From: a virus
Direction: 5' to 3' (one strand)
Length of the DNA: 64,000 nt
Virus record (IMG/VR): IMGVR_UViG_3300035698_014365
Coordinates: 12,710-76,709 of that record
Below the pieces are notes generated by a model. It ran no database searches. It was not told the origin of the DNA and was given only the letters and a program-made list of their open reading frames with translations. Position numbers and translations under genes: made by a program. This document shows positions 23,094 to 42,277 of the stretch, piece by piece. Within the stretch, counting starts at the first letter, position 1, and each line of letters begins with the position of its first letter.

Positions 23094-23095
23094 AG

Positions 23096-23131: not shown

Positions 23132-23167
23132 GGCGTGGGATGTTGGCGAATGACGCATTCAGGTATG

Positions 23168-23197: not shown

Positions 23198-23252
23198 GGC
23201 ACCCAAAAATGCCGGTAGCAACATTATGTTGCTACACGGACGCCATTTGTTG

Positions 23253-23682: not shown

Positions 23683-24447
23683 CTATTTCACCAGTTTCAC
23701 CGTCCAGGTCCGCTCATCGAGCCAGTCCCTGACACGGCACAGTACTTGTTTGGCGCTCGCCCCGCCCTTCATTGGGATAACCCATCCCGGATACCAGAAG
23801 TCGAGGCAGGCGCCGTAATTGACAGGAATATTGACCTTCAGGCCGTAGAACTCTATTTCCATCAGCTCTTCAAGGTGCTGCTGTGGGATGCCCTTCATTA
23901 TCGCGTCGTCGGTCTTCTTGTCAAATTCAATCACATTCGGGTCGAATTTACGACGGGTCACCCAGCGACCGGCCTTTGTGTGCCAGTAGTAGCCATTCCA
24001 CGGAAACATGAGCCAGTGGCAGAACTTGTTGTTGTCGCCGTGGTGGCGCAGTGTGAACCACGCCAGGCGATGCGGGCTTATCTCAGGGTTGACCTCCTCA
24101 GCAAGGACAGCCTCCTCGCCACGCTTCACCTTTCTGGCAATGGCTGCAAAGTCTATCTGATGGCCATCAGGGCACTTTCTGGTACACCAGTGGCCCCGGG
24201 CAAAGAACATCCCGCACTCGCCCAGCAGGCGGAAATAGTCGGCCTCCTGCTCAGCGGTTATCTTGTCCGCGAGAATGCACATATCAACGTCGTCGTCGTG
24301 GCCAATGAAGTCGCCCTCCCTGATTATCCCAAGGAGAAGGCCAAACCCGATGAATAATGCGTGCCGTATGCCAGCCTTGTCGGCACAGCGCAGCATTATC
24401 TCGATGTCGTCGATCGCCTTTTTCTTCTTTTCTGGCGTATAGCTCAT
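23683..24447 (-). CDS. LicD-family nucleotidyl/phosphotransferase
   Basis: FGLLLGIIREGDFIGHDDDVDM; C-terminal P.NY...L..WY..W..P. Confidence 0.85.
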   Translation of the reverse strand: MSYTPEKKKKAIDDIEIMLRCADKAGIRHALFIGFGLLLGIIREGDFIGHDDDVDMCILADKITAEQEADYFRLLGECGMFFARGHWCTRKCPDGHQIDFAAIARKVKRGEEAVLAEEVNPEISPHRLAWFTLRHHGDNNKFCHWLMFPWNGYYWHTKAGRWVTRRKFDPNVIEFDKKTDDAIMKGIPQQHLEELMEIEFYGLKVNIPVNYGACLDFWYPGWVIPMKGGASAKQVLCRVRDWLDERTWTVKLVK

Positions 24448-25145
24448 AGATCCTCGCAGGACTTGACAACAACCTTCCCATCAGGGGACTGGCTCTGGCC
24501 ACGGAAGTACTGCCGGAAGCGCCACCCGGGATACCACTGGTCGAGAAGTGTCCCGTACGCAAAGGGAATGCGCATTTTGTACGGCCCATGGTCCTCAAAT
24601 ACGTCATATCGCCAGATGCCGTCCTCTCCCAGCAACCGAGACGCCTCCGGGTGAGCGGCCCCGCGGATACGCGCAATGGTCTCTGGCGCCGGCTCAAGCA
24701 GCTCTTTCCGGGTCTTCTTGAACACGTACTTCGAAGGAACCTTCTTGCCCTCCCGGTTGTAATCGTACGTGTACAGGTAGTCGCCACCGCGCGGATAGAA
24801 CGCATAGATGTCCACAGTGGGCGTCCCGTGCAGCCGCGACTCAGCCGGCACACAGTGAATATTGAGCGGGCGACCGTCCTTATCATTCTTGATAGACGTG
24901 CTGACCTTGTAGCCAAGCGCATCAAATGCCTTCTGGAGCATGTCTTCGTCGAGTTCCTGGAAGAAAACCCCTATGTCGATGTCGTACGCATCGATTGAGA
25001 AGGTGCGGTCGGCCACATACTCGAGCATTGTCCCGAACGCGTGGAACCAGCGCAGGGGCCTCCCGTGGCGCCCGGCGAGGCTGTCCATTGCTGAGGATAT
25101 GCGCTCAAACACAGCGCGGGCAAGAATCTCGTTATTCATGCTCAA
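24444..25145 (-). CDS. LicD-family protein (divergent)
   Basis: FGTML...DIDIG; VDIY; PFAYGTLLDQWYPGW. Confidence 0.7.
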   Translation of the reverse strand: MSMNNEILARAVFERISSAMDSLAGRHGRPLRWFHAFGTMLEYVADRTFSIDAYDIDIGVFFQELDEDMLQKAFDALGYKVSTSIKNDKDGRPLNIHCVPAESRLHGTPTVDIYAFYPRGGDYLYTYDYNREGKKVPSKYVFKKTRKELLEPAPETIARIRGAAHPEASRLLGEDGIWRYDVFEDHGPYKMRIPFAYGTLLDQWYPGWRFRQYFRGQSQSPDGKVVVKSCEDL

Positions 25146-26106
25146 TGCTCCGAATAAGGGTTTTTAGGTACTTTGCGGCAACCGGGAGGGACAGATCCTT
25201 CTCGTACATTTCCGAGTAATGATCCGGCTCCCCGGTGAGCGAATACGCCTTGTGTGTCCTGACCTGGTCCCAGAAATGGGCCTTGTCAGCGAGGATAACG
25301 GGGTATTTATAGCCCCATATCTGCAGACTGTCACGGGCAACGACGGGGAGTCCACAGGCAAGGAACTCAGAAACCACCCTCGGACAGCTATCATCGCGAT
25401 TGTACGGCGCTATGCCCACATGACACTTGCTCATGGCCTTCGGCATTGACTCACGTGAAACATGCTTGACTTTCACGTTCTTCGGCGGCCTCTTCCCCTT
25501 CAGAGGATTTCCGAGCTGGAGGACGGACAGATCCTTGGGCACGGTGTCCCATACCCAGCCCACCCGCTTCCTCTTGTCCTTCGGGTGAATTGCCACAAAG
25601 CACACGTCGTATTTTTTCTGCTGCCTGTCGCGATATCCAAATATGTGCGACGCAGGCTTTATCCACAGGCTCGTACGCATGTACGGGTAGAGCTCATTGA
25701 CACGGGCCTTCTGCTTCTCGGAATCGACCAGCACCATGTCGTAGTCCAGAAACGACGACTCGGGGACAAATCTCTTGCCGGCGCCGTAGTACACCTTTAT
25801 TGCCCAGTGATATCGTTTGAATATCGGGATGTACTCAGGGAACCCTCCCCGGGCAATTATCATGTCGGGCTTCACGGGGTGGACGTAGCTCTGTAGCCGC
25901 TTCACGAACTTGACCTCGAAGTTCTCAGAGTACCGCACCGTGCGCTTGTGACCACCATAGAGGACGGTACACGTGTCTGAAGGCCCGGTCATGGCGTAGG
26001 CAAGCTCCGTCCATTGATCTGTCTCGTCCTCGATGCTGTCGTACAGAATCTCTTTGGGGTTCTCCCGGTCCTTCGGAAAGAATCCGCGTAGGAACAGTAT
26101 GTTCAT
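25132..26106 (-). CDS. Glycosyltransferase, GT4-like (GT-B)
   Basis: MNILFL start; DSCPRVVSEFLACGLPVV. Confidence 0.85.
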   Translation of the reverse strand: MNILFLRGFFPKDRENPKEILYDSIEDETDQWTELAYAMTGPSDTCTVLYGGHKRTVRYSENFEVKFVKRLQSYVHPVKPDMIIARGGFPEYIPIFKRYHWAIKVYYGAGKRFVPESSFLDYDMVLVDSEKQKARVNELYPYMRTSLWIKPASHIFGYRDRQQKKYDVCFVAIHPKDKRKRVGWVWDTVPKDLSVLQLGNPLKGKRPPKNVKVKHVSRESMPKAMSKCHVGIAPYNRDDSCPRVVSEFLACGLPVVARDSLQIWGYKYPVILADKAHFWDQVRTHKAYSLTGEPDHYSEMYEKDLSLPVAAKYLKTLIRSIEHE

Positions 26107-27221
26107 TCGTTGATTATCTCCGTTACGTGCCACACCTCATCATTGTGCAGCATCGGGTGAATGGGAAGGGTGAGTTCGTGTTCCTCGTACCAGCGCGCAC
26201 CGTCCAGCGTGCCGTCCTTTTCACACACGTCGTACATCGGATACCGGTGGTTTGATTTGTAGTGCATCCCTGCGTGAATATCCGCCATCGACAGCCTGCG
26301 GTACACCGTGTTGCGGTCAGCGAAAAACACGGGAAAGAAGTGGTTGCTACTCAGCGACGGCGCATGGCTCGGAAATAGCGTTCCCTCAAGCGTGATGTTC
26401 TTCTTGTAGAACTCGGCAATCTCAGAGCGGCGCCGGTTGTGCTCGTCGAGAACCTTCAGTTGTTCAAGGGCAATCGTGGCCGTGATGTCGTTCATGTGGG
26501 CCTTCAGGCCAACCAGCGGAACGCCGTACTCCCACGAGTAGCCATCACTGTACATGCGGGAGATAGTGTCCTTGTCGATACCCAGCCAGCGCATCTTATT
26601 TGGCGGCTCACCCTTCCACGACGCCAGTGATGGAATCACGAGCGCGCCACCATCGCCAATGCCCAAATTCTTGACCGCATGGAAGCTGAAGCAGCACTGG
26701 TTCTGAGAACACCCGATCGGCTCGCCGCTCATATACGTGCTTCCCATGGCGTGCGCACAGTCCTCAATTATCGGAATCTCTGCTGCGAGAGCAATCCCAT
26801 CTATTCTACGCATGTCGCACGGATACCCTCCGAGGTGCACAATGACAATAGCCTTGGCGTCAACCTCCTCAAGCATGCGCTCTATTGATTCAGGGTCGGC
26901 GCATCCCGTTGACCACGTCACGTCGTAGAACACCGGCTCCAGCCCCTCGTAGAGCAGGGCGTGGTTGGTGGACACAAAAGTCATTGGTGTGGTGAGCACC
27001 TTGTCGCCAGGCTGCAGTCCCAGATTTTTGACTGCGAGGTGAAGTGCCGACGTACAACTGTCTGTGGCCCACACGCGCTCGTGGTTGACATGGAACCTCT
27101 CTGCCAGAGCCTTCTCAAATTCAGCGACCTTCGGCCCGAGGCCAATCCACCCACTGTCCAGCACCGGGCGCAGGGCCTCAAGGATGTTGTCTGTCTGCAT
27201 TGCTGGTCGAAATACCTGCAT
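26103..27221 (-). CDS. DegT/DnrJ/EryC1/StrS sugar aminotransferase (PLP)
   Basis: SCTSALHLA, IIEDCAHAMG, FSFHAVKNL..GDGG, LTLPIHP. Confidence 0.93.
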   Translation of the reverse strand: MQVFRPAMQTDNILEALRPVLDSGWIGLGPKVAEFEKALAERFHVNHERVWATDSCTSALHLAVKNLGLQPGDKVLTTPMTFVSTNHALLYEGLEPVFYDVTWSTGCADPESIERMLEEVDAKAIVIVHLGGYPCDMRRIDGIALAAEIPIIEDCAHAMGSTYMSGEPIGCSQNQCCFSFHAVKNLGIGDGGALVIPSLASWKGEPPNKMRWLGIDKDTISRMYSDGYSWEYGVPLVGLKAHMNDITATIALEQLKVLDEHNRRRSEIAEFYKKNITLEGTLFPSHAPSLSSNHFFPVFFADRNTVYRRLSMADIHAGMHYKSNHRYPMYDVCEKDGTLDGARWYEEHELTLPIHPMLHNDEVWHVTEIINE

Positions 27222-27223
27222 CT

Positions 27224-27859
27224 CTACTCCTTCACCCAAAGGACGAATTGGTGCTTATGTGGCTTCTTCGCTGTCCGCATCTCAACCCTGAACCCCGCCT
27301 GCTTCATTCCCGCCCTGATCTCGTGTCTGATTCCGTCATACAGCAAGCCGTCAAACAGCCCCCCCTTGCAGTGCATGGTCAGCAGAACCATCTTGGCCCT
27401 CTTCACAACTTCTGGGACCATATGCCAGAATATCTCATACTCGGCACCGTAGCAGTCAAAGCGGATGAAGTCCGGGCGCAGATCAATGTTGTCGCAGAAA
27501 TCATCGAGCTTGCTGGAGGGCACCGTCTCCACCTTGCCCTTTGTTTTGCGCACCTTCCCAACCTCGCTGTACAACGAACTGTTCCGGCTGTCCTTCCCCG
27601 AGTAGCAGTTCACCCTGACTCTCCCGGTGACGCTGCCAATGGCAAGTATCCTGATGTCCACATGCCGCGGCACATTCGCCATGAGCTTCGGGAAGTTTGA
27701 CGGGTCGGCCTCCACAGCACAGACGCTGGCCTTGGGACACGCCTCGAGCATTGCATTTACGCCGTCGCCCTGGTGGCTGCCTATCTCAAGGACAACCGGA
27801 GACTCGCCAAGGCTCGGCAGCAACTCAAGCGCGCGGACAAATTCAGCTCGTAACGACAT
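27224..27859 (-). CDS. FkbM-family methyltransferase
   Basis: VVLEIGSHQG, AVEADP, LDDF...PDFIRFDCYGAEY. Confidence 0.8.
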   Translation of the reverse strand: MSLRAEFVRALELLPSLGESPVVLEIGSHQGDGVNAMLEACPKASVCAVEADPSNFPKLMANVPRHVDIRILAIGSVTGRVRVNCYSGKDSRNSSLYSEVGKVRKTKGKVETVPSSKLDDFCDNIDLRPDFIRFDCYGAEYEIFWHMVPEVVKRAKMVLLTMHCKGGLFDGLLYDGIRHEIRAGMKQAGFRVEMRTAKKPHKHQFVLWVKE

Positions 27860-28712
27860 CAAATACCTCTGCAAGTTTTCTCCCGGAAATACTCGGGTGG
27901 TAGTTGGTGGCATGCGCACGGAAATCAGCAGACACAGCTTTCCTGTCCGTGTTGAGACCATTCGACTCGACAAGCTCAGGGTGCCCACACTGTTCAACCG
28001 TTGAACGGTACGCGATGCAGTCAGACACAACTGCCGGCAGCCCTATGGCCATGCACACGAGAAGGCGATTATTTGACTTCATGTTCACGGCCCAGTGGGG
28101 GTGGTGGGCAAGCACGGCCAGATCGCAGTCGCGCAGAATATCGATAAGGGTGTCAGCCGACCAGCGCATGAATATCCAGTCCTTGAACCCGGGTAGCTTG
28201 CGGTCACAGATGTACACACGCTCTTCGTACAGCCCAACTCCCGGATAATCCTTTGCCGCCGCGACATTCTGCCAGCGCCCGAACGTGGCAATGCGCGTTA
28301 TCTTGTCGCGCAAAATCACGGGGGGCTCCTCCATGGCACCGTAATCAATTGTGTCAGGCACGACAAATACCGGGAGGTCAGTATGCTTCATCAACTCGTG
28401 GCGCTTCTCCTCGGTGTCGGTTGTCACGGCATCACAATAGCGCATCATCTTGTCGTACGGCTTGTCGCTCCAGTTCTCCCGAATATCATCCATGTCCAGA
28501 ACAACGGCAACCCCTTTGCGTTGAGCCTTCTTTGCCGCAGAAATTGTCCAGTCCCTCAGCAGCTTCTGGATATAGAGCACCTGAAAGCCGTCAAACGTGC
28601 CCTTGTATTTGCTGTACGAGTACCCCTTGGGCAGCGCCTTCAGAAACGCCTTGTACCTGATGCGCCTGGACGCAGAGGTCTTGTCCTCAATCGGAATGGT
28701 TGCTATTCTCAT
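27843..28712 (-). CDS. Glycosyltransferase (GT-B-like)
   Basis: ASRRIR, VLDMDD, VVPDTID, KSNNRL...MAIGLPAVVS. Confidence 0.75.
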   Translation of the reverse strand: MRIATIPIEDKTSASRRIRYKAFLKALPKGYSYSKYKGTFDGFQVLYIQKLLRDWTISAAKKAQRKGVAVVLDMDDIRENWSDKPYDKMMRYCDAVTTDTEEKRHELMKHTDLPVFVVPDTIDYGAMEEPPVILRDKITRIATFGRWQNVAAAKDYPGVGLYEERVYICDRKLPGFKDWIFMRWSADTLIDILRDCDLAVLAHHPHWAVNMKSNNRLLVCMAIGLPAVVSDCIAYRSTVEQCGHPELVESNGLNTDRKAVSADFRAHATNYHPSISGRKLAEVFDVVTS

Positions 28713-29362
28713 TTCTTCCAGAACTCCCATAAGTGGTCGCCGCGCGACTCTTTTGTTATCCGCTTGAACCCGTCAGACTTAAACTGTCGGCACAACTCCT
28801 CGTACTTGCGCCGATACTGCTTGGTGTCGAATGGGGCATGAGAATGCCACGACACAAATATCGCACGAATCTCCTCTGGCACACCGTCAAGCACGTCGTA
28901 CTCGGCGCCCTCAATATTGACCTTGAGCAAATCGACGGGACGACGGGTTCTCTTCTTCAGGGCATTCAGGAGGTCTGTCAGGCGATACGACATCACGGGA
29001 ACCTTCCCGTACCCCGTAATCTTCCCGCTGCGCTTCTTCTCCTTCAGTGGCTCCCTGAATATTGTGCAGCCCTGAGAGCGGTCTTTCCCCTTGTACTTAT
29101 CCGGGATATACAGTTGGGAGTACCCCTTGTCGGCAGCAACAACGCAGGCGGACACGACAACCCTCTCGTCACCCTTGAATCGCTCCTCAAGCCTGCATAC
29201 GCTCCGAGGCAGCGGCTCCACAGCGACAACGAGTTTGGCGCCGGCATCCAGCCATATTTTCGTGGTCTTCCCCGTGTGGGCACCAAGGTCAATGACAATA
29301 GGGCTTCTCTGCCCCATCAGGTAGCCTACGACCGTCTCAATGCCGGGGCGCTTCTCACTCAT
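28709..29362 (-). CDS. FkbM-family methyltransferase
   Basis: VIDLGAHTG, VAVEP, VDLLKVNIEGAEYDVL. Confidence 0.85.
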   Translation of the reverse strand: MSEKRPGIETVVGYLMGQRSPIVIDLGAHTGKTTKIWLDAGAKLVVAVEPLPRSVCRLEERFKGDERVVVSACVVAADKGYSQLYIPDKYKGKDRSQGCTIFREPLKEKKRSGKITGYGKVPVMSYRLTDLLNALKKRTRRPVDLLKVNIEGAEYDVLDGVPEEIRAIFVSWHSHAPFDTKQYRRKYEELCRQFKSDGFKRITKESRGDHLWEFWKK

Positions 29363-29363
29363 A

Positions 29364-29861
29364 TCACTTCCTCAGTACGAGGTTCGTGTAAAGGGCTCGC
29401 CCCAGATGCTTTGGCATAGGAGTTTTCCAGTCTGAATACACCCACTCCAAGTACTCCTCAATGGGGGAGTGGCACGGGTACTCGCGCCCGTAGCACACAA
29501 TCTTACCGGGGTACTCAAAGAAGTGGGCGGGCATGCGCCATGTGTTGCGCACTCGGTAGGCCCCCTTCTTTTGAAACGCTGCGACTGCCACCTCTATGTC
29601 TCCGCAGACACCGATTACCCGTAGTTTCTTCTTGGCACTGTGAACCTTGGTTTTGAAGTTGAGCTTGCGCAGCCCTCGCGCCACCATCTTTTCTTTCCCA
29701 AGCAAATCTTCTGTCTTGCAGCAAAAATCAAGGTCGTTGTCGCCCTGTATGACACCGCCTTCGCGATAGAACCCCAGAAGAGTGCCAAAGGAAATCCAGT
29801 ACGGGACGCCTGCGGCGCGGAGAATTTTGTCCGTCTCGACCAATGCGTGCTCGTGGTTCAC
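29364..29861 (-). CDS. LicD-family protein
   Basis: YWISFGTLLGFYREGGVIQGDNDLDF; EEYLEWVYSDWKTP; GTG start coupled to the upstream stop. Confidence 0.85.
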   Translation of the reverse strand: MNHEHALVETDKILRAAGVPYWISFGTLLGFYREGGVIQGDNDLDFCCKTEDLLGKEKMVARGLRKLNFKTKVHSAKKKLRVIGVCGDIEVAVAAFQKKGAYRVRNTWRMPAHFFEYPGKIVCYGREYPCHSPIEEYLEWVYSDWKTPMPKHLGRALYTNLVLRK

Positions 29862-30583
29862 TCTTTCACCCCCACCACGATGCAGGTTTGCCAATCCATG
29901 ATGATATCTCCGTCCACAAAGCGCATGTTGTAGGCGTCCTTGACATACTGAGGGGCACCCTGGTGCAGCCACCAAATGCTGTCGCGCTTCGCTTGCTCCT
30001 TTTCGCTATTTCGCAGCCAGTTGTTGAGGCTCATTCCCTGCTGCACCACAACGTCAACGCGCTTCACCCTGCACTGCTCGTCAACAAGCCCAACAAGGGT
30101 GTCGGGGGTATAGCAATTTCTGGCTTCTTTCACCTTGAACATCTCAGTGAACCAGCCGAGGCAGCCACGCGGAGGCACGCCCTCAACAACACACAGGCGC
30201 CCACCCGCGCTCAGAGAGCTCGCCACAGACGCCATGGCAACGACTTCGTCGGTCACTACGTGGTGAAGAACCATGCGCATGACCGCTATGTCGTAGGCGA
30301 GAACGTCGAGGCCGTGAACTATGTTGGCCGCCTCTATTGTGAACTTGTCGCCAATGCACCGCTCCCTGCACTTTTCAAGCATCTCTTCGCTCGAGTCGAG
30401 CATGTCCACGTGCTTCACGTAGGGGGAAAGTGCGGCACCCACCGCGCCGGTCCCACAGCCCGCGTCAAGCGCATAGTCGCCCGGCTTAGGATCGACGCCG
30501 CGCAGGACCACAGAAAGGTCCGTGGCGTCATTCACCCACAGCAGGTTGTCGTAATTGTCCGCCCTTGAGTTGTCCCAGCTCAT
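29858..30583 (-). CDS. Class I SAM-dependent methyltransferase
   Basis: ALDAGCGTG, DSSEEML, MVLHHV. Confidence 0.9.
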   Translation of the reverse strand: MSWDNSRADNYDNLLWVNDATDLSVVLRGVDPKPGDYALDAGCGTGAVGAALSPYVKHVDMLDSSEEMLEKCRERCIGDKFTIEAANIVHGLDVLAYDIAVMRMVLHHVVTDEVVAMASVASSLSAGGRLCVVEGVPPRGCLGWFTEMFKVKEARNCYTPDTLVGLVDEQCRVKRVDVVVQQGMSLNNWLRNSEKEQAKRDSIWWLHQGAPQYVKDAYNMRFVDGDIIMDWQTCIVVGVKE

Positions 30584-31149
30584 TTTCCCTTTACCTTTCG
30601 TTTATTCATGTACTTGTCACGGGCAGATGGGTTGCCAAAGTACGGCTTGCGCCAGTTCTTGTACTGCCATTCCAGATACTCCTCGACGGGGGACATGCAC
30701 GGATACATCACATCCCCGTATCGGATGAAGTCCTTGCCAAACATCCTCGCTGGCACACGGCGCCCTTTGAATACGCGGTACTTTCCCTTGAGAAAGTGGC
30801 CCATCAGAGCCATGTCTTCGCCGCCCATGTAGGCCAGCAGGCGAGCCTTCTTGCTGTAGCTGCGCACATCGAACCCGCGCGCAAGCAGTACCTGTTTGAG
30901 CACATTAATCTTCGGCACCAAGTCTTCGGCAAAACAGAAGAAATCAACGTCCTCATCACGCTCCAACAGGTGCCCCTCGCGGTGTATCCCCAACAGGGCG
31001 CTCATACCTATCCAGTGCCGCACTTCACAGGTGCTTAGGATGTCGTGAAATATCTCCATCACCGCGGCACGATGAGCTATCCCGGGGGAGTGCAGCAGCG
31101 AGTGGTACATCTTCAGCCACTTCTTTTCTGGCACCAAACTATAGTCCAC
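30580..31149 (-). CDS. LicD-family protein
   Basis: ALLGIHREGHLLERDEDVDF; EEYLEWQYKNWRKP. Confidence 0.8.
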   Translation of the reverse strand: MDYSLVPEKKWLKMYHSLLHSPGIAHRAAVMEIFHDILSTCEVRHWIGMSALLGIHREGHLLERDEDVDFFCFAEDLVPKINVLKQVLLARGFDVRSYSKKARLLAYMGGEDMALMGHFLKGKYRVFKGRRVPARMFGKDFIRYGDVMYPCMSPVEEYLEWQYKNWRKPYFGNPSARDKYMNKRKVKGK

Positions 31150-34257: not shown

Positions 34258-34271
34258 AACACCCTCCTCGC

Positions 34272-35024
34272 TTAGGTGAACTTCGTATTCTCTCGGGTAA
34301 TACCTTCCCGCTTGAGTTGTTTGATGCGCTTCTTGAACTGCTTCTTCAGTTCCGCGTTCTTCTTCTCGTCCAGCCGGCGAACCTTGTGCATCTGGCCCTC
34401 GTGCTTCCGATAACGCGCCACCACCTTCTTGAGCTTGTAATCCTTCACGAGCTTCGGTAGCGGGCTGTCAGGGTGCACGCCCAGCCGATAGATAAATTCC
34501 TTGTCCCCCATCGACCTCAGTGCCTCGTAGTACAGCCCAAACCTGTCGTACACTGAGCGGCGCCACATGCGTCCCTGCGCGTGGCAGAAAGTTTTTTTGT
34601 TTACACCGCGGAAGTCGTCGCCACCGTACCAACGGTCTGCGTAGCCATGGACAAGGTCAACCTCCGGGTGTTCGTCAAATATGCGCACGGCATCTTCCAG
34701 CGCATTCGGTGTTAAGACGTCGTCGGCGTCTATCAGGCGGATGAATTCTCCCTGAGATGCGAGTATTCCGGTGTTCTTGGCGGTGTTGTAGCCAAAATTC
34801 CTTGGGTGCTCTATAATGTGAAAGCGCCCACGGGGCTTGCCTGTGTCGGCAACGCTGTAGTAGAGCATGTACGAGCCAATTTCATCGAGTTCTTCCGGGC
34901 GGCTCCCATCATCAACGATAATGCACTCAAAGTCCTCGAACGCCTGCGCCTCAATACTCTCAAGGCAGTCGTCCAAATAAGTGGCATAATTGAAATGGGG
35001 CACCACGATCGATACCCTAGGCAT
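34272..35024 (-). CDS. Glycosyltransferase GT2
   Basis: VSIVVPHFN, IIVDDGS, AKNTG, IDADD. Confidence 0.92.
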   Translation of the reverse strand: MPRVSIVVPHFNYATYLDDCLESIEAQAFEDFECIIVDDGSRPEELDEIGSYMLYYSVADTGKPRGRFHIIEHPRNFGYNTAKNTGILASQGEFIRLIDADDVLTPNALEDAVRIFDEHPEVDLVHGYADRWYGGDDFRGVNKKTFCHAQGRMWRRSVYDRFGLYYEALRSMGDKEFIYRLGVHPDSPLPKLVKDYKLKKVVARYRKHEGQMHKVRRLDEKKNAELKKQFKKRIKQLKREGITRENTKFT

Positions 35025-35595
35025 ATTTCTTCGCCTCCCTTATCCAGCGACTGTCCTCACGCGAGTGGCCCTTGCCATGCCAAATCACAGACTCGCGGTC
35101 AAAATGGTTGTCATTGAACTTGGTCTCCAGTGGAATCAATCTCACAACAGACTTCTTCCACACCTTCCACAGGTATCGCTGGTCGTCAAGCCACTTCTTG
35201 GCTTTCATCACACCACGCAGCCAGTTGGCAACCAGTTCCTCTGTCTCAGGTGAGCGCCCGATTGCCATGACGCCGGTGTTGAATATCGAGCAGTCGGCTA
35301 TTCCGGGGCGATACATCACCTTCAGCGTCCCGGGCTCCACATCTGACCAAAAATCATCGAGTGGCGCACGCACGATGGTGTCAACGTCCACCCACCCCAC
35401 CCGTGTCCACCCGCGCTGAAACGCTTGGTGAAACAGCTTCACGCGACCCATTGCTGCCTCAATGCGATCGCCGGTGGGAAATGTGACCTCCTTGAGATCC
35501 TGATCGGGGTCATTCCTCTTGATAGAGGCCACGCACACCTTGCGCATCTCCATGCATTCGGTGTTCTCGTTACATCCTGTGAGTAGCAGGCCCAA
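35017..35595 (-). CDS. Nucleotide-diphospho-sugar transferase (GT-A, GT77/GT34-like)
   Basis: WVDVDTIV (DxD), FNTGVM, DDQRYL, IWHGKG; TTG start after GGAGG. Confidence 0.75.
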   Translation of the reverse strand: MGLLLTGCNENTECMEMRKVCVASIKRNDPDQDLKEVTFPTGDRIEAAMGRVKLFHQAFQRGWTRVGWVDVDTIVRAPLDDFWSDVEPGTLKVMYRPGIADCSIFNTGVMAIGRSPETEELVANWLRGVMKAKKWLDDQRYLWKVWKKSVVRLIPLETKFNDNHFDRESVIWHGKGHSREDSRWIREAKKYA

Positions 35596-35603
35596 AAGTC
35601 CTC

Positions 35604-36239
35604 CTATGCGCAGTCCACACACCACCAGCGCTTGGTTTTTGTACAGTAGACAATGTCCCCCAGTTTTGGAATCTTGTCGCCGCCGCAAATCGTTATGCCG
35701 AGCTTCTTTGTCGCCTTGTACACTTTTCTCGCAAATGCCAGATATCCCTCGGGTGTATGGAGCGGGTGCTCGGCCCTGTCGAGGCAATTGAAATCATACG
35801 GCAGCCCGCTCGCATACACGTTCCAAGCATCTTCAGGATAGTGGACGTGCACCATCTTTATTGCCCACGCCTTCGCCGACCTTCTTTTTCCTCGGACGAG
35901 GAGATCGAGCTTTACGTGGACTATTTTTGTTGCCTTCGGGGTTATCCCCGCCGCCGCCATCCGCACTCGGTTCTTCCAGTCCTTCATCAGGGCTCTCTTC
36001 TTGTACACCTTGAACTCCGGGAGCTGGACAAACACCTTCATCCCCTTGTCCTTCTTGTACCGGAAGTACGCTCCCGTCATCCCCTTCGGGACTACCTTCT
36101 CCGTCCCGTCCGGCAGCGTCCACAGCAGGCTGTGCACTCCCTTGATCAGGCCGTCCTTGTCCGAGTTCCGGTGTATCCCGTCCAGCGGAGCCTTCACCCT
36201 CGACCTCTTTATCTCCGTCAGTGTCCCCTGAATCTTCAT
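35604..36239 (-). CDS. Protein-kinase-fold (Kdo/WaaP/APH-like) kinase, divergent
   Basis: GMTGAYF...MKVF, AGITPK, MVHV, GD...GDI...VDC match the order of kinase subdomains. Confidence 0.5.
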   Translation of the reverse strand: MKIQGTLTEIKRSRVKAPLDGIHRNSDKDGLIKGVHSLLWTLPDGTEKVVPKGMTGAYFRYKKDKGMKVFVQLPEFKVYKKRALMKDWKNRVRMAAAGITPKATKIVHVKLDLLVRGKRRSAKAWAIKMVHVHYPEDAWNVYASGLPYDFNCLDRAEHPLHTPEGYLAFARKVYKATKKLGITICGGDKIPKLGDIVYCTKTKRWWCVDCA

Positions 36240-36864
36240 TCTTCCTCCTGCCAATAACGTCCGCGAACCTCTTTTCAAGGCCCCAGTGCACCTCACACTC
36301 AAACCCGGCCTCCTCCAGCCACGTAATAACGGTGCTGTTCTTCTCGAAATGCTGGGAGTTGTGCTCGCGCCAGTCCTTCCCCTTCTTGCGATTGGTGCGT
36401 TCCTTCGTGCGGTTCTGGATAATCACGAGGCTGCAGTGCGGAAGAATGTGCTCTGCCACTGCGGCGAGCTCTTTGTTGGACAGGTGGTACAGGACAAAGC
36501 TGGCGTACATGGCGTTCACCTTGGCTTCCCGCTGCCCCTTGCGTATCTCCCTGCAGAAGTCCTTGGTTGACATCTTGAGAAACTCGACGTTTTGATTGAA
36601 CTTCTCGATGTGCTGTGCCGTGACCTGTGCCTGCCCCATGTATCTGTCTGAGAGGTCGATGCCAATCACACTCTTGGCGTAGTGAGCCACCTCCCACACG
36701 TACAGGCCGGCGTTGCAGCCTATCTCCAGCACGTCCATGCCCTCAAACAGGGGGGCAAACTGGGAAAAGAACCTCAGCCTGATGTCGAGCCTGGGCCAGC
36801 GCTGGTAGGCTTTCTCTTTCCACTTTGCCGCGATTTTATCGTACTTATCCTTTGTGAGTTTCAT
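35833..36864 (-). CDS. Class I SAM-dependent methyltransferase with a long acidic tail overlapping the next gene
   Basis: VLEIGCNAG, GID, VLYHL; the domain ends near 36240 but the ORF continues for 407 nt. Confidence 0.8.
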   Translation of the reverse strand: MKLTKDKYDKIAAKWKEKAYQRWPRLDIRLRFFSQFAPLFEGMDVLEIGCNAGLYVWEVAHYAKSVIGIDLSDRYMGQAQVTAQHIEKFNQNVEFLKMSTKDFCREIRKGQREAKVNAMYASFVLYHLSNKELAAVAEHILPHCSLVIIQNRTKERTNRKKGKDWREHNSQHFEKNSTVITWLEEAGFECEVHWGLEKRFADVIGRRKNEDSGDTDGDKEVEGEGSAGRDTPELGQGRPDQGSAQPAVDAAGRDGEGSPEGDDGSVLPVQEGQGDEGVCPAPGVQGVQEESPDEGLEEPSADGGGGDNPEGNKNSPRKARSPRPRKKKVGEGVGNKDGARPLS

Positions 36865-37411
36865 CCCATACCCCTTTCACGAACATAAGTTTTTTGTCGA
36901 ACTTCCCTTTATCCATTGAGCCCGGGTGGCGGTCCTCATACCACTCGGCCCATATTGACCTTTTCCCCAAAACCCACCGTGATGCTGCGCGGCCGGCACC
37001 TGTCCATATCTCGGGTCCACCTACCCACGCATTCTTCAGCCCAAATCGGGTCACCCAGAACGGCTCCTCAAGTATCTCTATCGGCTGGCGCCGGTCGTAC
37101 CCCTTCTTGCGGATGCTCTCAAACAGCTTGAATCGCTTGGGAAGGTGCACGTTGAGAATATATGCGTCCGTCCATTTGCTCATGCCAATCTTGAGCCGAC
37201 GCTGGCGCTCCTTCACATAGCGAGTCTTCTTGAGCTTGCGCCAGTCGAATCCGTGCTTCTCGTACAGCTCCAGCATCTCAACGTGCGGGCTGTTCATCAG
37301 CGACAGATCCCCCTCGTAAATATCCATCGGTGTCACGACCGGGATATACCTGATGTGCAGAGCCTCCAATTGCACCTTCTCTTTGGTGCCCGTTGAGCGG
37401 ATGTCACTCAT
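36845..37411 (-). CDS. ParB/Srx-like domain protein
   Basis: LFESIRKKGY...PI...EIWTGAGRAA resembles the ParB-N core (DGxHR degenerate). Confidence 0.45.
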   Translation of the reverse strand: MSDIRSTGTKEKVQLEALHIRYIPVVTPMDIYEGDLSLMNSPHVEMLELYEKHGFDWRKLKKTRYVKERQRRLKIGMSKWTDAYILNVHLPKRFKLFESIRKKGYDRRQPIEILEEPFWVTRFGLKNAWVGGPEIWTGAGRAASRWVLGKRSIWAEWYEDRHPGSMDKGKFDKKLMFVKGVWDETHKG

Positions 37412-37775
37412 TCTTGACCCCCACAAATTCATTCCACTTTGCCATCAGGCGCATGGGGCAGCTTCTCTTCTGACACTGAACATCGCCAGCGCCAATTTCC
37501 TCAATGAGTCCACAGGTGTCCTCGTGTGAGCCTTCTGTCACCCCGAAGAAGGGGCACTCCTGCTGGATGATATCTGGCCAGTCTAAATAGTTTTGGAGCG
37601 TGGGCATTGAGGAGCGCGCGTGTTCTAGTGGGCAATACTCTTTACAGCAAGAGGGTTCGCCCGGCGAGTACATGTCGGGAGAAATGAGCTCCTGAATGGA
37701 ACAGCTCCCATCGTCACAAAGAATGCCAAACGTCGCACATCCTGATTTGTGGTCACCCACCCAGCACCTCCTCAA
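37404..37775 (-). CDS. Cys-rich hypothetical protein with two similar modules
   Basis: C..F...C...C...CP pattern occurs twice; start uncertain. Confidence 0.5.
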   Translation of the reverse strand: MRRCWVGDHKSGCATFGILCDDGSCSIQELISPDMYSPGEPSCCKEYCPLEHARSSMPTLQNYLDWPDIIQQECPFFGVTEGSHEDTCGLIEEIGAGDVQCQKRSCPMRLMAKWNEFVGVKNE

Positions 37776-38712
37776 AGAAGTTCAGGTAGTCGTTGGCCAC
37801 ATATCCTATGTCCAGCCTGTCCGGGCGCACAGCCGGCTTCCAGTTCTGGTCTGCCGACATTATCATCGCATTGGCCAGTATGACACGGTCGAGGCGCGGA
37901 GGCTTGCCAAGGTCGATGGGTTTGAACTTGAATTTCTTGTCCTGAATGGAGATGTAATTCCACCCCTCCAGCATCTCCGCTGTGCCACCCTGGTTGGTGC
38001 AAAGCACCGGGGCTCCGGCTCCGACGGCCTCGGCAACACTGTTCGGGCAGGCGTCGAGGTGCACCACGTGAACAAATGTCGATGCTGCCTTCAGATACGA
38101 CGCGATGGTGACCTGATCGCACTCTCCCACATAGGTGACGTTGTCGCCCTTGTACTTCTTGTCCTGATCGAGCGCGTTGCCCAGAATGAACAGCTTGGAC
38201 TCCGGGATGCAGGCCATGTTAAACGACAGCACAATATCCTTCAGCCGCTTCTGCGCTATCCACTTGCGCGTACTGGCGACGAATATGTGTCCCTTCCCGA
38301 GGTCGCGTGCAGTGATGACATTGTCGTACCACTCGTAGTCCACACCGTTGTGGATAACCGTCTCTGGGCATTTCGGCTTGCACACGAACGCATGGTTGAC
38401 CTTGCGACTGTATTCTGACTGAAATACGACGGCATCAGCCAGCTTCACCGACTTCTTGCGCTTCGCATTGAGCTTTTCATAGTCCTCGTGCTTTGACACC
38501 CTCGCAGGGCCAATTCTCAGCACGTTCGCCCGGGCACGCGACTTGTACCTGATGTGCCCCACGTGGAGGGCAATATCCACCTTCTTGTCAGTGTCAGCCG
38601 TTACCTCTGCCCCGAGCTTCCCGAGAGCCGTAACGAGGCGCTGAACGAAGAAGCCCTTGCCACTCTTGGCAGCCGACCAGTCTCCATGCTTCGATGCTAT
38701 GCAGATCTTCAT
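37753..38712 (-). CDS. Glycosyltransferase GT4
   Basis: VVFQSEYS, VIHNGVD, DACPNSVAEAVGAG. Confidence 0.88.
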   Translation of the reverse strand: MKICIASKHGDWSAAKSGKGFFVQRLVTALGKLGAEVTADTDKKVDIALHVGHIRYKSRARANVLRIGPARVSKHEDYEKLNAKRKKSVKLADAVVFQSEYSRKVNHAFVCKPKCPETVIHNGVDYEWYDNVITARDLGKGHIFVASTRKWIAQKRLKDIVLSFNMACIPESKLFILGNALDQDKKYKGDNVTYVGECDQVTIASYLKAASTFVHVVHLDACPNSVAEAVGAGAPVLCTNQGGTAEMLEGWNYISIQDKKFKFKPIDLGKPPRLDRVILANAMIMSADQNWKPAVRPDRLDIGYVANDYLNFFEEVLGG

Positions 38713-39650
38713 CCCAGTAGCCTCGCCATCTTTGTCATGTTTTCGAGCCTGGTTCCGATGGCCAGCACCCGTTTTCTGCAGTCCGCCCACTCTGGCGGAA
38801 CCTCTCGTGCTCGAATTCTCTCTGCTGCTTCTCCCAGCGATCGATAGACAATAGAGTTTGAATCAGTCGAGTAATCTGCCATCCCCCCACGAGCAGAATC
38901 ACTGCGAACAATGATGCAGCCACTAAGAGCGGCCTGACTTGCGGCATTGTAGAATCCCTCCAGTTTGTTGGGGGCGAAGAAGTAGTCGCAGGCCCAGTAG
39001 AAATCTTGGAGCTGTTTGGGCTTTGGTTGCCGAATATGTGTCAGCCACCCCTTCTCGTAGCGACTGTTCCCAAACGTCAGCCACTCACACTCAGCCCCGA
39101 GTTTTCTGTGCAGCTTTTTGAAGGCCTTGAATTTCTTGCGCGGCAACTTTGAGTGTTGGCATCCAACAACAGCTCTTCCGCCGAACCGATCGCGCTCATA
39201 GAGGTACTGAAACTCGCTCTCCGCTAACCCCGCAAACACCACCTGCGCTTCCACTCCATGCTGTCGCAGCACCTCGGCGGGCCACGAGCTATTGGCCATG
39301 ACTATGCCACCCTTTTTGTGGAACTTCTTGAGCAGATGAATGATGTCGTGCTCGGGCATTGTCCACGTTTCGTACGGGCGTGCCCAATATGCCACCCGCT
39401 TCCCCTTGGCCTTCTCCATCACCAGCGGAACGTCGTGGATATGGACAGCCACAACCACGTCGGCGTTCTGTGGGATCGTCTCCTTTGGCTTCGGGTGCTT
39501 GAACCATGTGAATCCGTCGTGCGTCGCCACCACCGACACCTTATGCCCCAGATCGCGCAGGGCCTGAGCAGACAACAGGATGGTGCGCGTGCCACCCGTG
39601 TTGTTGAGCTGCCCCCAATAATGGTGGTCGTTGTAGAAGCATATGTTCAT
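38709..39650 (-). CDS. Glycosyltransferase GT4
   Basis: GGTR...LRDLGHKV, EGFYNAASQAALSGC. Confidence 0.82.
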   Translation of the reverse strand: MNICFYNDHHYWGQLNNTGGTRTILLSAQALRDLGHKVSVVATHDGFTWFKHPKPKETIPQNADVVVAVHIHDVPLVMEKAKGKRVAYWARPYETWTMPEHDIIHLLKKFHKKGGIVMANSSWPAEVLRQHGVEAQVVFAGLAESEFQYLYERDRFGGRAVVGCQHSKLPRKKFKAFKKLHRKLGAECEWLTFGNSRYEKGWLTHIRQPKPKQLQDFYWACDYFFAPNKLEGFYNAASQAALSGCIIVRSDSARGGMADYSTDSNSIVYRSLGEAAERIRAREVPPEWADCRKRVLAIGTRLENMTKMARLLG

Positions 39651-40441
39651 AGGAATTTCCCCAGCGCCTTGACGACCTTCTTCACCGGAGGCTGCCAGTT
39701 GTGATCTTGTAAGATTTTGCACGGCGTACCAAATGGTGACCATAGCTTTTTGTACCTGTCTTTATTCGTCCCCTTGATGGCCTTCTCGTACTTGTCGTAG
39801 GTCATCACAACATGTGGTAGCCCACACAGGCTCGCCAAATGCGCCGGGCCCGACGACGGGCTGAGCATCACCTTGCTCGAGGCCATAATATCACACAGCC
39901 TTCTCAGCGAAATCCCTCTGAGGTCTTCTGTCCCGGGCACATGATACGCCCCCTTCGTTGTTCCAATACTGCACACGGTGTGTGGCTTCAGCGCCTCGAC
40001 AACCTTCACATAGTTCTTCAGCGGCCAGTTGCGATTCTTGTGGTTCGACTTATGGGCGAATTTTGTCTCAGCGCGCGCGTGAATCACAAGGTTGTACTTC
40101 CACGCCCCACTCACCTCGCCGTACTTCACATACTCTCTCGCCCACTTGCAGCACACCTTGCGCCCGGGAGACAGGTGAATGACCTCTCCCACCACGGGAA
40201 TCGGCACATCGAACGACGGCTTAATGCGCAATTTCTTCCCGTTGAAAAACCATCGGTCGGCAACCCCGTCTGGGCTGTATGAAATAAAGTCGGTCGCAAA
40301 CTCGTACAGAAACTCGTGCTCAGGCCGACATATCACCGTCACGCGCTCGAATCGTGGGGCAATATGGCGCAACGCTGGAATCCAGGTGGCGACACACCAT
40401 CCAAATTCCATAGAGTCAGGGCCTGCGACGAGGTGTCTCAT
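39647..40441 (-). CDS. Glycosyltransferase GT9 (heptosyltransferase-like)
   Basis: KNRNWP, DLRG.SL, SSGPAHLASLCGLPHV. Confidence 0.82.
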   Translation of the reverse strand: MRHLVAGPDSMEFGWCVATWIPALRHIAPRFERVTVICRPEHEFLYEFATDFISYSPDGVADRWFFNGKKLRIKPSFDVPIPVVGEVIHLSPGRKVCCKWAREYVKYGEVSGAWKYNLVIHARAETKFAHKSNHKNRNWPLKNYVKVVEALKPHTVCSIGTTKGAYHVPGTEDLRGISLRRLCDIMASSKVMLSPSSGPAHLASLCGLPHVVMTYDKYEKAIKGTNKDRYKKLWSPFGTPCKILQDHNWQPPVKKVVKALGKFL

Positions 40442-40611
40442 GGTGTGAATCTTACGCACTCTGGTGGGTATTCTGATTCCTGCCCGTTTCCAGCAGCATC
40501 AAACCATTCACAGCAGACGTAGTTGTCGCCAACAAACGTAATAGTCATGTCTGGGCCGCCGCTGTTCAGACAAACCACATAGCCAACTTTCATTTTTTCG
40601 TCGTCGCTCAT
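40438..40611 (-). CDS. YodC/DUF2158-like small protein
   Basis: Read by hand: MKVGYVVCLNSGGPDMTI...VCCEWFD. Confidence 0.7.
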   Translation of the reverse strand: MSDDEKMKVGYVVCLNSGGPDMTITFVGDNYVCCEWFDAAGNGQESEYPPECVRFTP

Positions 40612-41372
40612 CACCACACCGCCTTTCTCATGGGCTTCTTTGCCCGGACAATTTTCTCACATCGCTTCTCAACGACACGCTTCTTCTTCGTCTTCACATC
40701 GCGATAATAGTAGATGAGCCTGTGGATGTGCACACATCGGCTGAGCCCAGCCAGTTCTATCGCCGGCATCATCAGCGCCAAGTCGGAGCACGCTGGCAGC
40801 CACGCGCCCTTGTGCTTGAAACAATCCTCCGGAATCTGCCTGAACAGCTTCCATTTCATTGTCTTGAGGTGCGAGCCGCGCCACGGATGCTTCCTGACAT
40901 TGGCCCCGTCGGGGTAGGCATTCGAAATCTTCGTTCTGCGGCCGACCGACTTCTTCAAATACGAGCCGTAGGTCAGCAGGCACTTCGGGTTCTTCTGGTA
41001 GGCGCGCTCAACAATGCGCAGAGCCTTCGGGTCGAGCTTATCGCCATCCCCGTCCAGAAACACCAGGATATCCTCTGGGTCGAACGGAATACTCTCATAG
41101 GACGTGTCGCAGTGTTGCTTCTGAATCCAAGGGGCCTTGTATATCTGGCGCGCGACACCGTAGTTCTTCTCACTAACCGATATGGATATCTTCCCCAGAG
41201 GCAGATTTGCATTCCTGCGGAAGCTGTCAACGGCCGTGAGCGTCCTGTCCTCCGGCGCATCCAGTGCTACGTGCGCAACCCACTTCTCACACGTCTGGCC
41301 GACGAGACTCTTCAGAGTCTTGCCGATCAGATGCTCTGCATTGCGAGCGCGCATGATTACGCGGAACAGCAT
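40611..41372 (-). CDS. Glycosyltransferase GT2
   Basis: ARNAE..I...L.SL..Q, FLDGDGD, TYGSY, SHLKT, DLALM. Confidence 0.85.
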   Translation of the reverse strand: MLFRVIMRARNAEHLIGKTLKSLVGQTCEKWVAHVALDAPEDRTLTAVDSFRRNANLPLGKISISVSEKNYGVARQIYKAPWIQKQHCDTSYESIPFDPEDILVFLDGDGDKLDPKALRIVERAYQKNPKCLLTYGSYLKKSVGRRTKISNAYPDGANVRKHPWRGSHLKTMKWKLFRQIPEDCFKHKGAWLPACSDLALMMPAIELAGLSRCVHIHRLIYYYRDVKTKKKRVVEKRCEKIVRAKKPMRKAVW

Positions 41373-42277
41373 CAGCAAATCACCTTTCTGGAGTTGTGCA
41401 GGAGCTTCTTTGTCCCCTTGTCGCTCCCCATGCACGCCTTGGCAATAGCAATCCACTCAGGGTCTTTCCACAGCCTCTTATAGCGCTTCACGGCCGTCTC
41501 GGTGATGAGTTTGCTGCGACGCCCCTCTTTGAGCCTTCTGGCAAACTTGAAGTCCCCAAGATGGATGTCGCGGTAGCTCGCACTCGACTTCTGACCATTT
41601 GGCATCTCGTTCTTGTGCTTCGGAACCTTGATTCCTGACCCGCGCAGCATCCGGCAGTGCATGACCTCGTCGTACTCCCGATAGCTGCCAAACTTGTGCT
41701 TATCGAGACCATCCCTCTTCTGTCCGGTCGCAACAGCCTTGTAGAGCGCGCGCTGAGCCTTCACGGCCTTCAGCCATTGTTTCACGTGAATCATCACTGT
41801 ACCACCGCAGATGCGCATGTAGTGGTCGCGCCAGCCGTGCTCACCGTGAATCTTCGGGCGCCAGGGGCGAGTAGACGGGCCCCGGAACGCACTGTACGGA
41901 ACTCCGCCCTTTTTCATCACAGACACGTGGTACTGGAGGTGTGTTGGCGTGTGACGGAAAACGACGAAATCCACGTCCGTGATATACGCATATTTGTAAG
42001 GCTTCAGGTAAGCTCGCGGTATCAGCAACCGACAGGCGCCACAGGTTCCCTTCCCGTTCCGATAATTCAGGAATTGATTCTCTATCACATCCCAGCCCAC
42101 CATAGACTGAAACGGCTTCGTATTGAGAATCGCAGCAACCCCTGGCAGCAACTTCCCTCGGATTAGTACCTTCACGTCCCACTCTGGGTACGCTCGTTTT
42201 ACCGAGTATATCCACAGGGGAATGAAGAATTCAAACCCGTCGGCGCTGACAACCGTGAATGCACACACCTTCGCCAT
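41372..42277 (-). CDS. Putative GT-A fold glycosyltransferase
   Basis: YAYITDVDF (DxD), RICGG, DE; cluster context. Confidence 0.55.
   Translation of the reverse strand: MAKVCAFTVVSADGFEFFIPLWIYSVKRAYPEWDVKVLIRGKLLPGVAAILNTKPFQSMVGWDVIENQFLNYRNGKGTCGACRLLIPRAYLKPYKYAYITDVDFVVFRHTPTHLQYHVSVMKKGGVPYSAFRGPSTRPWRPKIHGEHGWRDHYMRICGGTVMIHVKQWLKAVKAQRALYKAVATGQKRDGLDKHKFGSYREYDEVMHCRMLRGSGIKVPKHKNEMPNGQKSSASYRDIHLGDFKFARRLKEGRRSKLITETAVKRYKRLWKDPEWIAIAKACMGSDKGTKKLLHNSRKVIC

Follow-up and report, generated by a model that had tools for sequence, protein, structure and literature searches.

What does a phage build with 25 glycan-related genes set between its large terminase and its portal protein? 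The question is raised by a stretch of 64,000 nucleotides (the window, to which all coordinates refer) from IMG/VR virus record IMGVR_UViG_3300035698_014365, in which a minus-strand gene cluster at 23683-42277, termed the island below, separates the gene of the large terminase (TerL; 43350..45455, phrog_2 terminase large subunit, 1.9e-33) from that of a P22-type portal (20720..22861, PF16510 P22_portal, 1.7e-34), both also on the minus strand. The island encodes ten glycosyltransferases (GTs), six S-adenosylmethionine (SAM) methyltransferases, two of them of the FkbM type, four LicD-type proteins, one DegT aminotransferase, a radical SAM/SPASM enzyme, a kinase-fold protein, a ParB/sulfiredoxin (Srx)-fold protein and a Cys-rich protein. 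The answer tentatively favoured here, at a little under an even chance, is a cytoplasmic pathway that makes a methylated, phospho-substituted heteroglycan on an acceptor supplied by the phage, probably a virion protein.

Gene classes were assigned using Pfam, NCBIfam, paralogy, the protein Atlas and two structure predictions, and each class named in the initial annotation of this DNA was found at its coordinates on the minus strand. After refinement of the start codons against relatives, 25 genes were counted instead of about 27. Most of them abut or overlap a neighbour, the remaining gaps being three in number and 150-170 nt long. The share of about 30% given initially holds for the window (29%) but falls to 24% when the whole genome is considered. 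The GC content of the island equals that of its flanks. Pfam searches at E values of up to 5 returned nothing useful for nine of the island proteins.

The source contig is a single sequence of 76,709 bp, the window corresponding to its bases 12710-76709. Its first 30 bases are repeated at 76615, 95 bases before the end, and the record is classed in IMG/VR under direct terminal repeats with a CheckV completeness of 100%; the contig was therefore taken as a complete phage genome. The minus strand carries a co-directional block in the order small terminase (TerS), DNA methyltransferase and HNH endonuclease, TerL, island, portal, scaffold-like protein, putative capsid protein, and tail genes with giant proteins, so that the island indeed has the orientation of the packaging and morphogenesis genes. 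The opposite strand encodes a DnaB helicase along with small early genes. No tyrosine integrase was found in the genome, a serine recombinase not having been searched for, and the phage is apparently lytic.

Conservation and cassette exchange

Approximately 70 portal homologues with 39-83% identity were found in public metagenomes and their alignment was used to recover relatives, namely the IMG/VR genomes G001-G004 (71-74 kb) and the 41.8-kb contig L058. The portals of these five uncultured relatives are 40-46% identical to that of the window. Neither the portal nor the radical SAM protein gave a match when IMG/VR was scanned with it as a single query. Searches of GenBank phages (INPHARED) using tblastn gave no match for the portal, putative capsid, GT8-like, GT9-like and LicD proteins, and by this search no cultured relative is available. 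L058 (CAZNMB010000001.1) was binned in a Dehalococcoidia metagenome-assembled genome and carries portal, capsid, tail and island genes; it is probably a mis-binned phage contig and hence provides no host evidence.

A synteny survey for the order terminase-island-portal identified the same island in all five relatives, each of which has sequence upstream of the portal. In G001, 20.9 kb separate TerL from the portal, and the order of the intervening genes is nearly that of their counterparts in the window. The packaging-to-portal interval wraps the contig ends in both G002 (~21.7 kb) and G004 (~28 kb, of which ~6 kb is without homologue in the present genome). In G003, the island is split over three places, flanking TerL on either side and preceding the portal, and there are two copies of the radical SAM gene. 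Some 17 island genes of the window have homologues in most relatives at 26-55% identity; TerL has 38%, the portal ~42% and the putative capsid protein ~60% identity. This divergence, similar to that of TerL and the portal, together with the uniform GC content, fits vertical co-inheritance. No counterpart was found in the five relatives for three methyltransferases and the Cys-rich protein, while L058 alone has counterparts of both FkbM and of two LicD paralogues, and only G002 and G004 have one of the small glycosyltransferase gene w35017.

The island proteins shared by G001 and G002 are mostly 87-99% identical, at dS values of 0.05-0.4, and the dN/dS of their island orthologues is 0.03-0.26, the portal and the putative capsid protein having values of 0.02 and 0.05, respectively. 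Given these ratios and the homologues in five related phages, the island genes are real and not chance open reading frames (ORFs). Purifying selection acts on the island, which is inherited vertically as a stable trait of the lineage.

Between the same two genomes, the centre of the island has been replaced (L053:9007-L045:3073 in G001 versus L060:830-6600 in G002). Several central genes of G001 have no orthologue in G002, and identity falls to ~40% in the radical SAM protein and one GT4. The cassette of G001 comprises DegT, GTs and proteins of no assigned function, and that of G002 a sulfotransferase, a second radical SAM/SPASM protein and further methyltransferases. Pfam searches of 138 island ORFs of the relatives recovered 16 GT1/4, 7 GT2, 6 radical SAM and 5 LicD proteins as well as two each of DegT, sulfotransferase, FkbM and cytidylyltransferase-like proteins; none of the 25 commonest families is an export family. 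The cytidylyltransferase-like genes fit the use of CDP-activated donors by LicD; the present genome has no such gene. The last island gene of G001, just before the portal (L045:8419-9285, plus strand), encodes an N6/N4 DNA methylase (PF01555, 6.1e-30), in the position taken in the present genome by a zinc-ribbon-like protein (23253-23672).

Functions absent from the genome

The initial annotation had proposed a set of soluble cytoplasmic enzymes, and no island protein was found to contain a membrane helix (no 19-residue hydrophobic stretch above 2.0). It had also recognised no flippase, polymerase, membrane protein or nucleotide-sugar activating enzyme in the island, an absence that was found to extend to the whole genome. 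The genome encodes no polytopic membrane protein. The membrane-protein scan revealed no initiating polyprenyl-phosphate transferase, flippase, ABC exporter, polymerase or ligase, a result which rests on all of these being multi-pass membrane proteins or having membrane partners, and no membrane protein of the GtrA, GtrB or GtrC type. A six-frame search of the genome with positive controls returned no nucleotidyltransferase (PF00483), cytidylyltransferase-like protein (PF01467), SDR epimerase/dehydratase (PF01370) or thymidylate-synthase-like dCMP/dUMP hydroxymethylase (PF00303). Since nucleotidyltransferase and epimerase genes are missing, the pathway must draw on host sugar nucleotides; since membrane and lipid-carrier genes are missing, it can by itself neither start on a lipid carrier nor export a product. 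Lysogenic serotype conversion, raised initially as an alternative, is made unlikely by the lack of both an integrase and a Gtr-type membrane protein.

Glycosyltransferases

Both GT2 enzymes expected from the initial annotation were recovered. The clearer match is w34272 (34272..35024, PF00535 1.6e-27); w40611 (40611..41456) scores 24.7 bits against PF00535, above the cut-off of 23.3, has a probable start at 41372 that overlaps the upstream stop by 1 nt, and has homologues of 37-39% identity in G001-G004. Of five GT4-like proteins, two are significant in Pfam: the GT4/GT1-type w37753 (37753..38790, probable start 38712; PF00534 5.4e-09, PF13692 6.4e-09), 40-45% identical to its homologues in relatives, and its paralogue w31716 (31716..32591; PF13439 4.1e-09, PF00534 1.3e-06). 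The other three are below the cut-off, though with GT homologues in relatives. These are the GT-B protein w38709 (38709..39743, probable start 39650), with sub-threshold matches to Glyco_transf_4, Glyco_trans_4_4 and Glyco_trans_1_4 and 26-32% identity to the homologues, the probable GT-B w27843 (27843..28730; PF13692 E 0.0024), with homologues in G001, G003 and L058, and the GT-B w25132 near the portal (25132..26133; PF13692 8.5e-05), which is 42-44% identical in all five relatives and gave no match in a profile search of the PDB.

The glycosyltransferase gene nearest to TerL, w41372 (41372..42277), had been labelled a putative GT-A enzyme. It has no Pfam match, but its Atlas model (pTM 0.81) resembles GT8 clusters (TM 0.64) and, at TM 0.77-0.87, viral clusters named 'nucleotide-diphospho-sugar transferase', making it a GT8-like member of a mostly viral family; its homologues in G001-G004 are 33-37% identical. 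For w35017 (35017..35553), initially called GT77/34-like, what stands is a probable small GT-A enzyme with DVD, NTG and DDQ motifs read by eye; no hidden Markov model supports it. Its start was set at Met79 of the ORF and it was aligned with the homologues from G002 and G004. A lipoprotein-like L-T-G-C signal further upstream in this ORF was rejected, as it falls on the 3' end of the kinase-like gene, which is read in a different frame, and both homologues have a normal GT-A N-terminus where it would be.

The GT9 assignment of w39647 (39647..40441) is weak on its own Pfam match (PF01075 E 0.01, under the cut-off); a few of its 1,290 homologues carry PF01075 or the name ADP-heptose:LPS (lipopolysaccharide) heptosyltransferase. 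Profile matches to heptosyltransferases in the PDB are weak (E ~0.5), and the protein is short, at 264 aa about 70 residues below their 326-349 aa. The family is large and widespread in phages, and outside the lineage it was found at 67 IMG/VR loci. In 11 of these the 10-kb flank upstream of the GT9-like gene contains a DegT homologue, at a distance of ~1 kb in L080, L081, L103, L107 and L109, which suggests a recurring pair of amino-sugar enzyme and transferase in diverse, mostly large phages.

Tailoring enzymes and proteins of unusual fold

All six methyltransferases, including both FkbM proteins, have Pfam matches: the class I enzyme w35833 (35833..36864, Methyltransf_23 2.3e-09), a Methyltransf_24-type enzyme (33405..34103, PF13578 6.8e-07), two further SAM methyltransferases (31139..31735, PF08241 3.6e-15; 29858..30583, PF08242 7.5e-12), and the FkbM paralogues w28709 (28709..29362, PF05050 1e-13) and w27224 (27224..28030, PF05050 1.2e-06), the latter probably starting later than its ORF. 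The ORF of w35833 has no stop at the end of the domain and runs ~400 nt (130-200 codons) into the kinase-like gene in another frame. The overrun (35833-36239) spans the first two-thirds of that gene, is also present in G001-G004 (L053:5712-6112, L060, L062, L047), and encodes a low-complexity tail (G/E/D/K/S/R/P) that is little conserved. It was read as a by-product of purine-rich coding sequence; yet none of the five genomes has an earlier stop.

The radical SAM enzyme with SPASM domain, w32588 (32588..33421; PF04055 2.9e-10, PF13186 9.6e-08), and the DegT-type pyridoxal-phosphate (PLP) sugar aminotransferase, w26103 (26103..27239; PF01041 2.6e-81), are present as described initially. NCBIfam matches of the former are far below threshold, and its homologues in relatives, two of them in G003, are 36-50% identical. 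The families nearest to w26103 are PseC (2.4e-75) and ArnB (2.5e-60), both below the equivalog cut-offs, with ArnB in the PDB matching at 1.7e-45, and the enzyme is predicted to act on an NDP-4-keto sugar. A set of 43 viral loci containing DegT has almost nothing else in common with the island.

Two of the four LicD proteins were verified by Pfam and NCBIfam, namely w29364 (29364..29975; PF04991 2.5e-06, NF045866 7.6e-07) and w23683 (23683..24447; PF04991 E 1.8e-4, NF045866 1.7e-09), the latter kept in all relatives at 39-49% identity. The other two were assigned by paralogy and Atlas search: w30580 (30580..31149), a LicD-like phosphotransferase paralogue 38% identical to w29364 (blastp E 1.4e-27) with a homologue in L058, and w24444 (24444..25145), also kept in all relatives, whose nearest Atlas clusters (score 0.95, 198-202 features in common) carry PF04991 and which shares a W-Y-P-G-W motif with w23683. 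All four contain a D-x-D motif, and the models match their N-terminal part only.

The labels 'kinase-like' and 'ParB-like' are backed, at the level of the fold, by AlphaFold2 (AF2) models and structural matches. For w35604 (35604..36239), a lineage-restricted protein of 211 aa, the model (pLDDT 92.7) shows a minimal protein-kinase-like fold; each of the 50 top structural matches is a protein-kinase fold (Z 9.4-6.8; Foldseek, VIA), including OspG, NleH, HopBF1 and RIO, and H-x-H, G-D and a terminal D are invariant in the alignment. For w36845 (36845..37411; 188 aa, pLDDT 96.7), Foldseek returned sulfiredoxin, KorB, ParB-CTP, PadC and SbnI with probabilities of 0.9-1.0 but E values of ~0.01. A G-x-x-R-x-A-A motif is kept in the alignment, the family numbers 56 homologues among 1.8 billion representatives, and no Pfam match was found in 33 members; from its modelled fold, w36845 is a candidate nucleotide-binding phosphotransferase. 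The adjoining 123-aa Cys-rich protein (37404..37775), encoded ~4 kb from the radical SAM/SPASM gene, contains about a dozen cysteines and has no Pfam or PHROG match. Candidate roles are those of an Fe-S protein, a zinc protein or a substrate of the radical SAM enzyme.

Proposed pathway and acceptor

The enzyme set fits a methylated, phospho-substituted, amino-sugar-containing glycan. In the pathway that we infer, with its acceptor, donor sugars, order of steps, timing of expression and phospho-group chemistry, host nucleotide sugars would serve as building blocks. The phage DegT enzyme would divert a host NDP-4-keto sugar to a 4-amino sugar, which the GNAT-like protein encoded next to TerL may N-acetylate. 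The ten soluble GTs (four GT-A and six GT-B) would extend the heteroglycan stepwise, directly on a cytoplasmic acceptor. Methyl groups would be added by the six methyltransferases and phosphodiester-linked groups by the four LicD-type enzymes, possibly assisted by the kinase-fold and ParB/Srx-fold proteins, and the radical SAM enzyme would carry out one further tailoring step.

A virion protein is favoured as acceptor because the end genes are constant across a lineage whose hosts surely differ. An acceptor belonging to the phage is also favoured by the central tailoring cassette, which is swapped between near-identical phages like an exposed surface part, by the lytic-looking genome with the island in its late block, and by the lack of any gene for starting on or exporting a lipid-linked glycan. 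Constant ends and a variable centre fit a constant attachment or inner core with a variable exposed part.

Several observations weigh against this assignment. Nothing in the sequence ties the glycan to any virion protein; no Ser/Thr-rich C-terminal tail or tract was found in the putative capsid or other structural ORFs, and a phmmer comparison (E up to 10) of mycobacteriophage Che8 gp108-110 with the island proteins and the relatives' ORFs gave no match. In G003 (L049, L054, L056, L047), TerL and the flanking island genes are inverted relative to the portal. Outside G001-G004 the w25132-like family was found at 10 loci, of which several are on large contigs. At least 60 further viral contigs, most of them derived from large phages, carry the GT9-like family; where TerL was detected in them, it lies ~28-97 kb from the GT9-like gene. 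Lipid-linked acceptors are also normal substrates of soluble GT2 and GT4 enzymes, so that a host target can be envisaged even without membrane proteins. Published readings of comparable genes point the same way, the cell-wall gene sets of cyanomyoviruses S-SCSM2R, S-SCSM1 and P-SSM2 (PMC12801897) and the GT/LicD-type genes of gut phages (PMC8008677) both being interpreted as modifiers of the host surface.

The transcriptional layout belongs with these points. Co-transcription with the capsid genes is not evident, given a strongly structured 159-nt spacer (23094..23252, minus strand) identified by terminator scan and RNA folding. Its predicted fold has an energy of -71.4 kcal/mol (z -6.05 versus shuffled sequence) and comprises two terminator-like hairpins, each followed by a U run, with a promoter-like TTGACG-18-TATATT between them. 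A similar hairpin precedes the portal in L058, and none was found in G001 (L045). Counts of sigma-70 promoters and terminators across the island did not exceed those of shuffled controls, the spacer alone standing out. The spacer is a possible boundary of transcription units between the island and the portal module, and, judging from the hairpins and the promoter-like site, the transcription unit of the island may include the terminase instead of the head genes.

Some of these points lend weight to remodelling of the host envelope, the main rival reading, which we regard as somewhat unlikely. Soluble enzymes at the inner face of the membrane would act on undecaprenyl-linked intermediates of O-antigen, capsule or teichoic acid, host flippases or ABC exporters would carry the products out, and the altered surface of the infected cell would, for example, block superinfection or keep progeny off debris. 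O-antigen and teichoic-acid loci, which also have conserved ends and a variable centre, typically contain GT2, GT4, GT9, LicD, FkbM and DegT genes, and GT9 enzymes normally act on the LPS core, for which some w39647 homologues are named. Separation of the island from the head genes by terminator-like hairpins and the occurrence of the GT9-like family in large phages, far from packaging genes, would be accommodated as well. However, unlike O-antigen loci and gtrABC phages, the genome has no initiating transferase, flippase, polymerase, ligase, Gtr or other membrane protein and no tyrosine integrase, and the island is placed in the late block, where 24% of a lytic-looking genome would be a high price for a surface change shortly before lysis. 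The maintenance of ~17 genes at portal-like divergence in phages that must differ in host is hard to square with host-specific acceptors.

Another cytoplasmic acceptor, such as a non-structural phage protein, a host flagellin, pilin or defence protein, or a small molecule or lipid, modified for take-over, counter-defence or signalling, appears improbable. A candidate counter-defence gene with an Acb2/Tad1 hairpin domain adjoins the island, w37753 weakly matches a 'GT4 in conflict systems' family (E 0.0014), and the enzyme mix recalls natural-product clusters for aminoglycosides and nucleosides; but ten GTs and four LicD proteins imply a long or branched polymer instead of a small product, no scaffold-forming natural-product enzyme was seen, and we know of no precedent in tailed phages. 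Hypermodification of the phage DNA, in which sugars on the bases would protect from restriction, is very improbable. ParB-like, kinase, PLP and radical SAM proteins occur in thymidine-hypermodification clusters, and the island adjoins the packaging genes. Phage GTs that hypermodify DNA are known (Pyle et al., 2024, as cited in PMC12619734). The usual route is nevertheless missing, as the genome has no thymidylate-synthase-like hydroxymethylase, and among the replication-module genes scanned there is a DnaB helicase only and no DNA polymerase. The numbers of GTs (ten), LicD proteins (four) and methyltransferases (six) far exceed those of known DNA-sugar systems. Finally, 5-hydroxymethyluracil DNA kinases are P-loop kinases, whereas the kinase-fold protein of the island is protein-kinase-like.

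Flanking genes

The small terminase is encoded at 50116-50721 (minus strand; Sf6_terminase 1.1e-05), and the DNA methyltransferase and HNH endonuclease genes lie between it and TerL on the same strand. TerL is ~32% identical to annotated TerL proteins of GenBank phages over residues 8-472 (tblastn). Residues 472-701 (~230 aa; window 43350-44040, minus strand) fall outside all GenBank phage terminase matches and are kept in four related genomes, forming a lineage-specific extension. On the other side of the island, a 139-aa zinc-ribbon-like protein (23253-23672, minus strand) precedes the portal, which is followed on the minus strand by a Pro/Glu-rich scaffold-like protein of 573 aa and the 430-aa putative capsid protein. 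The latter was assigned by its position and as the most conserved protein of the lineage; a PDB profile search with it gave no match, and PHROGs gave none for eight structural proteins.

Two small minus-strand genes separate TerL from the first glycosyltransferase. The GNAT-like acetyltransferase (42814..43365), which adjoins TerL, is also present in relatives and lies outside the limits drawn initially for the cluster, has an R-G-K-G-x-G motif and a C-terminal K-x-G-F-K motif in alignment. Its profile matches PDB entry 2gan (E 0.0019; titled hypothetical protein), which we take to be an acetyltransferase, with Pfam Acetyltransf_4 reaching only E 0.2, and it could be the N-acetylase of the amino sugar. 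Between it and the first glycosyltransferase, the 123-aa Acb2/Tad1 hairpin-domain protein (42279-42650; PF24729 6.9e-07, phrog_2428 6.8e-36) has no homologue in the five relatives and is, on its domain matches, a candidate sponge for cyclic-nucleotide defence signals.

Comparison with known systems and significance

In the closest characterised phage system, glycans have been reported on capsid and tail-tube subunits of mycobacteriophages Che8, Corndog and Myrna (Freeman et al., 2023, as related in PMC12619734 and PMC12363180). The acceptor tails are placed at the C-terminus of these subunits in PMC12619734, and Che8 gp110 is called essential in PMC12363180. As in the present genome, the GTs are phage-encoded, soluble and without membrane partners; theirs act in lytic growth. 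However, Che8 has three GT genes (gp108-110), located at the right end of its genome and without sequence similarity to the island, which comprises 25 genes with 10 GTs between TerL and the portal. Unlike the mycobacteriophage system, the island also has LicD, DegT, radical SAM, kinase-fold and ParB/Srx-fold proteins, while the C-terminal acceptor tails of that system have no visible counterpart here.

Comparable size, enzyme mix and cassette variability are seen in the fibril-glycosylation clusters of Megavirinae, which contain 6 to 33 genes for bacterial-type amino-sugar glycans (Notaro et al., 2022, PMC10117803) and are clade-specific, variable and independent of the host ER/Golgi (PMC10117803). 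These giant viruses have genomes of >1 Mb, amoeba hosts and full nucleotide-sugar pathways, whereas the present phage has as pathway enzymes only DegT and the GNAT-like protein, with no dehydratase/epimerase or nucleotidyltransferase. Cyanomyoviruses also carry many GTs per genome, the 13 GTs of one being called possibly the highest number for a marine phage (PMC12801897). Their genomes are far larger, and their gene sets, which contain epimerases, Kdo enzymes and TagD, are not described as lying between TerL and the portal; here 10 GTs form one block in a 77-kb genome. No published description of a comparable island in a mid-sized phage was found in the literature searched. The island is an unusually large, enzyme-rich variant of phage-encoded glycosylation, lineage-wide and with a putative acceptor.

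A bolder extension of the preferred reading, possible but to be held with some doubt, is that particles of the whole lineage of mid-sized phages are coated with a teichoic-acid- or LPS-like polymer, a methylated heteroglycan with phosphodiester links and amino sugars, made in the cytoplasm without lipid carrier by ~25 enzymes, its outer part diversified by cassette exchange. If so, the kinase-fold and ParB/Srx-fold proteins would be novel enzymes providing or attaching phospho-groups, and a strategy of giant viruses would be present in a genome about fifteen times smaller. The enzymes merit study in their own right, including the mostly viral GT8-like family, several mostly viral LicD-like families, the short GT9-like family with >1,000 members, and the kinase-fold and small-family ParB/Srx-fold proteins in a glycan pathway. 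Should the target be the host envelope, the island would represent an unusually large case of a lytic phage rewriting the cell surface without a membrane protein of its own. If the glycan is carried by the virion, elaborate particle glycosylation would not be limited to giant viruses and a few actinobacteriophages with few genes each, but would be a heritable, diversifying trait of ordinary environmental phages to which a quarter of the coding capacity is devoted. Such a coat could influence adsorption, stability, grazing and the way host defences recognise the phage, with relevance for phage engineering.

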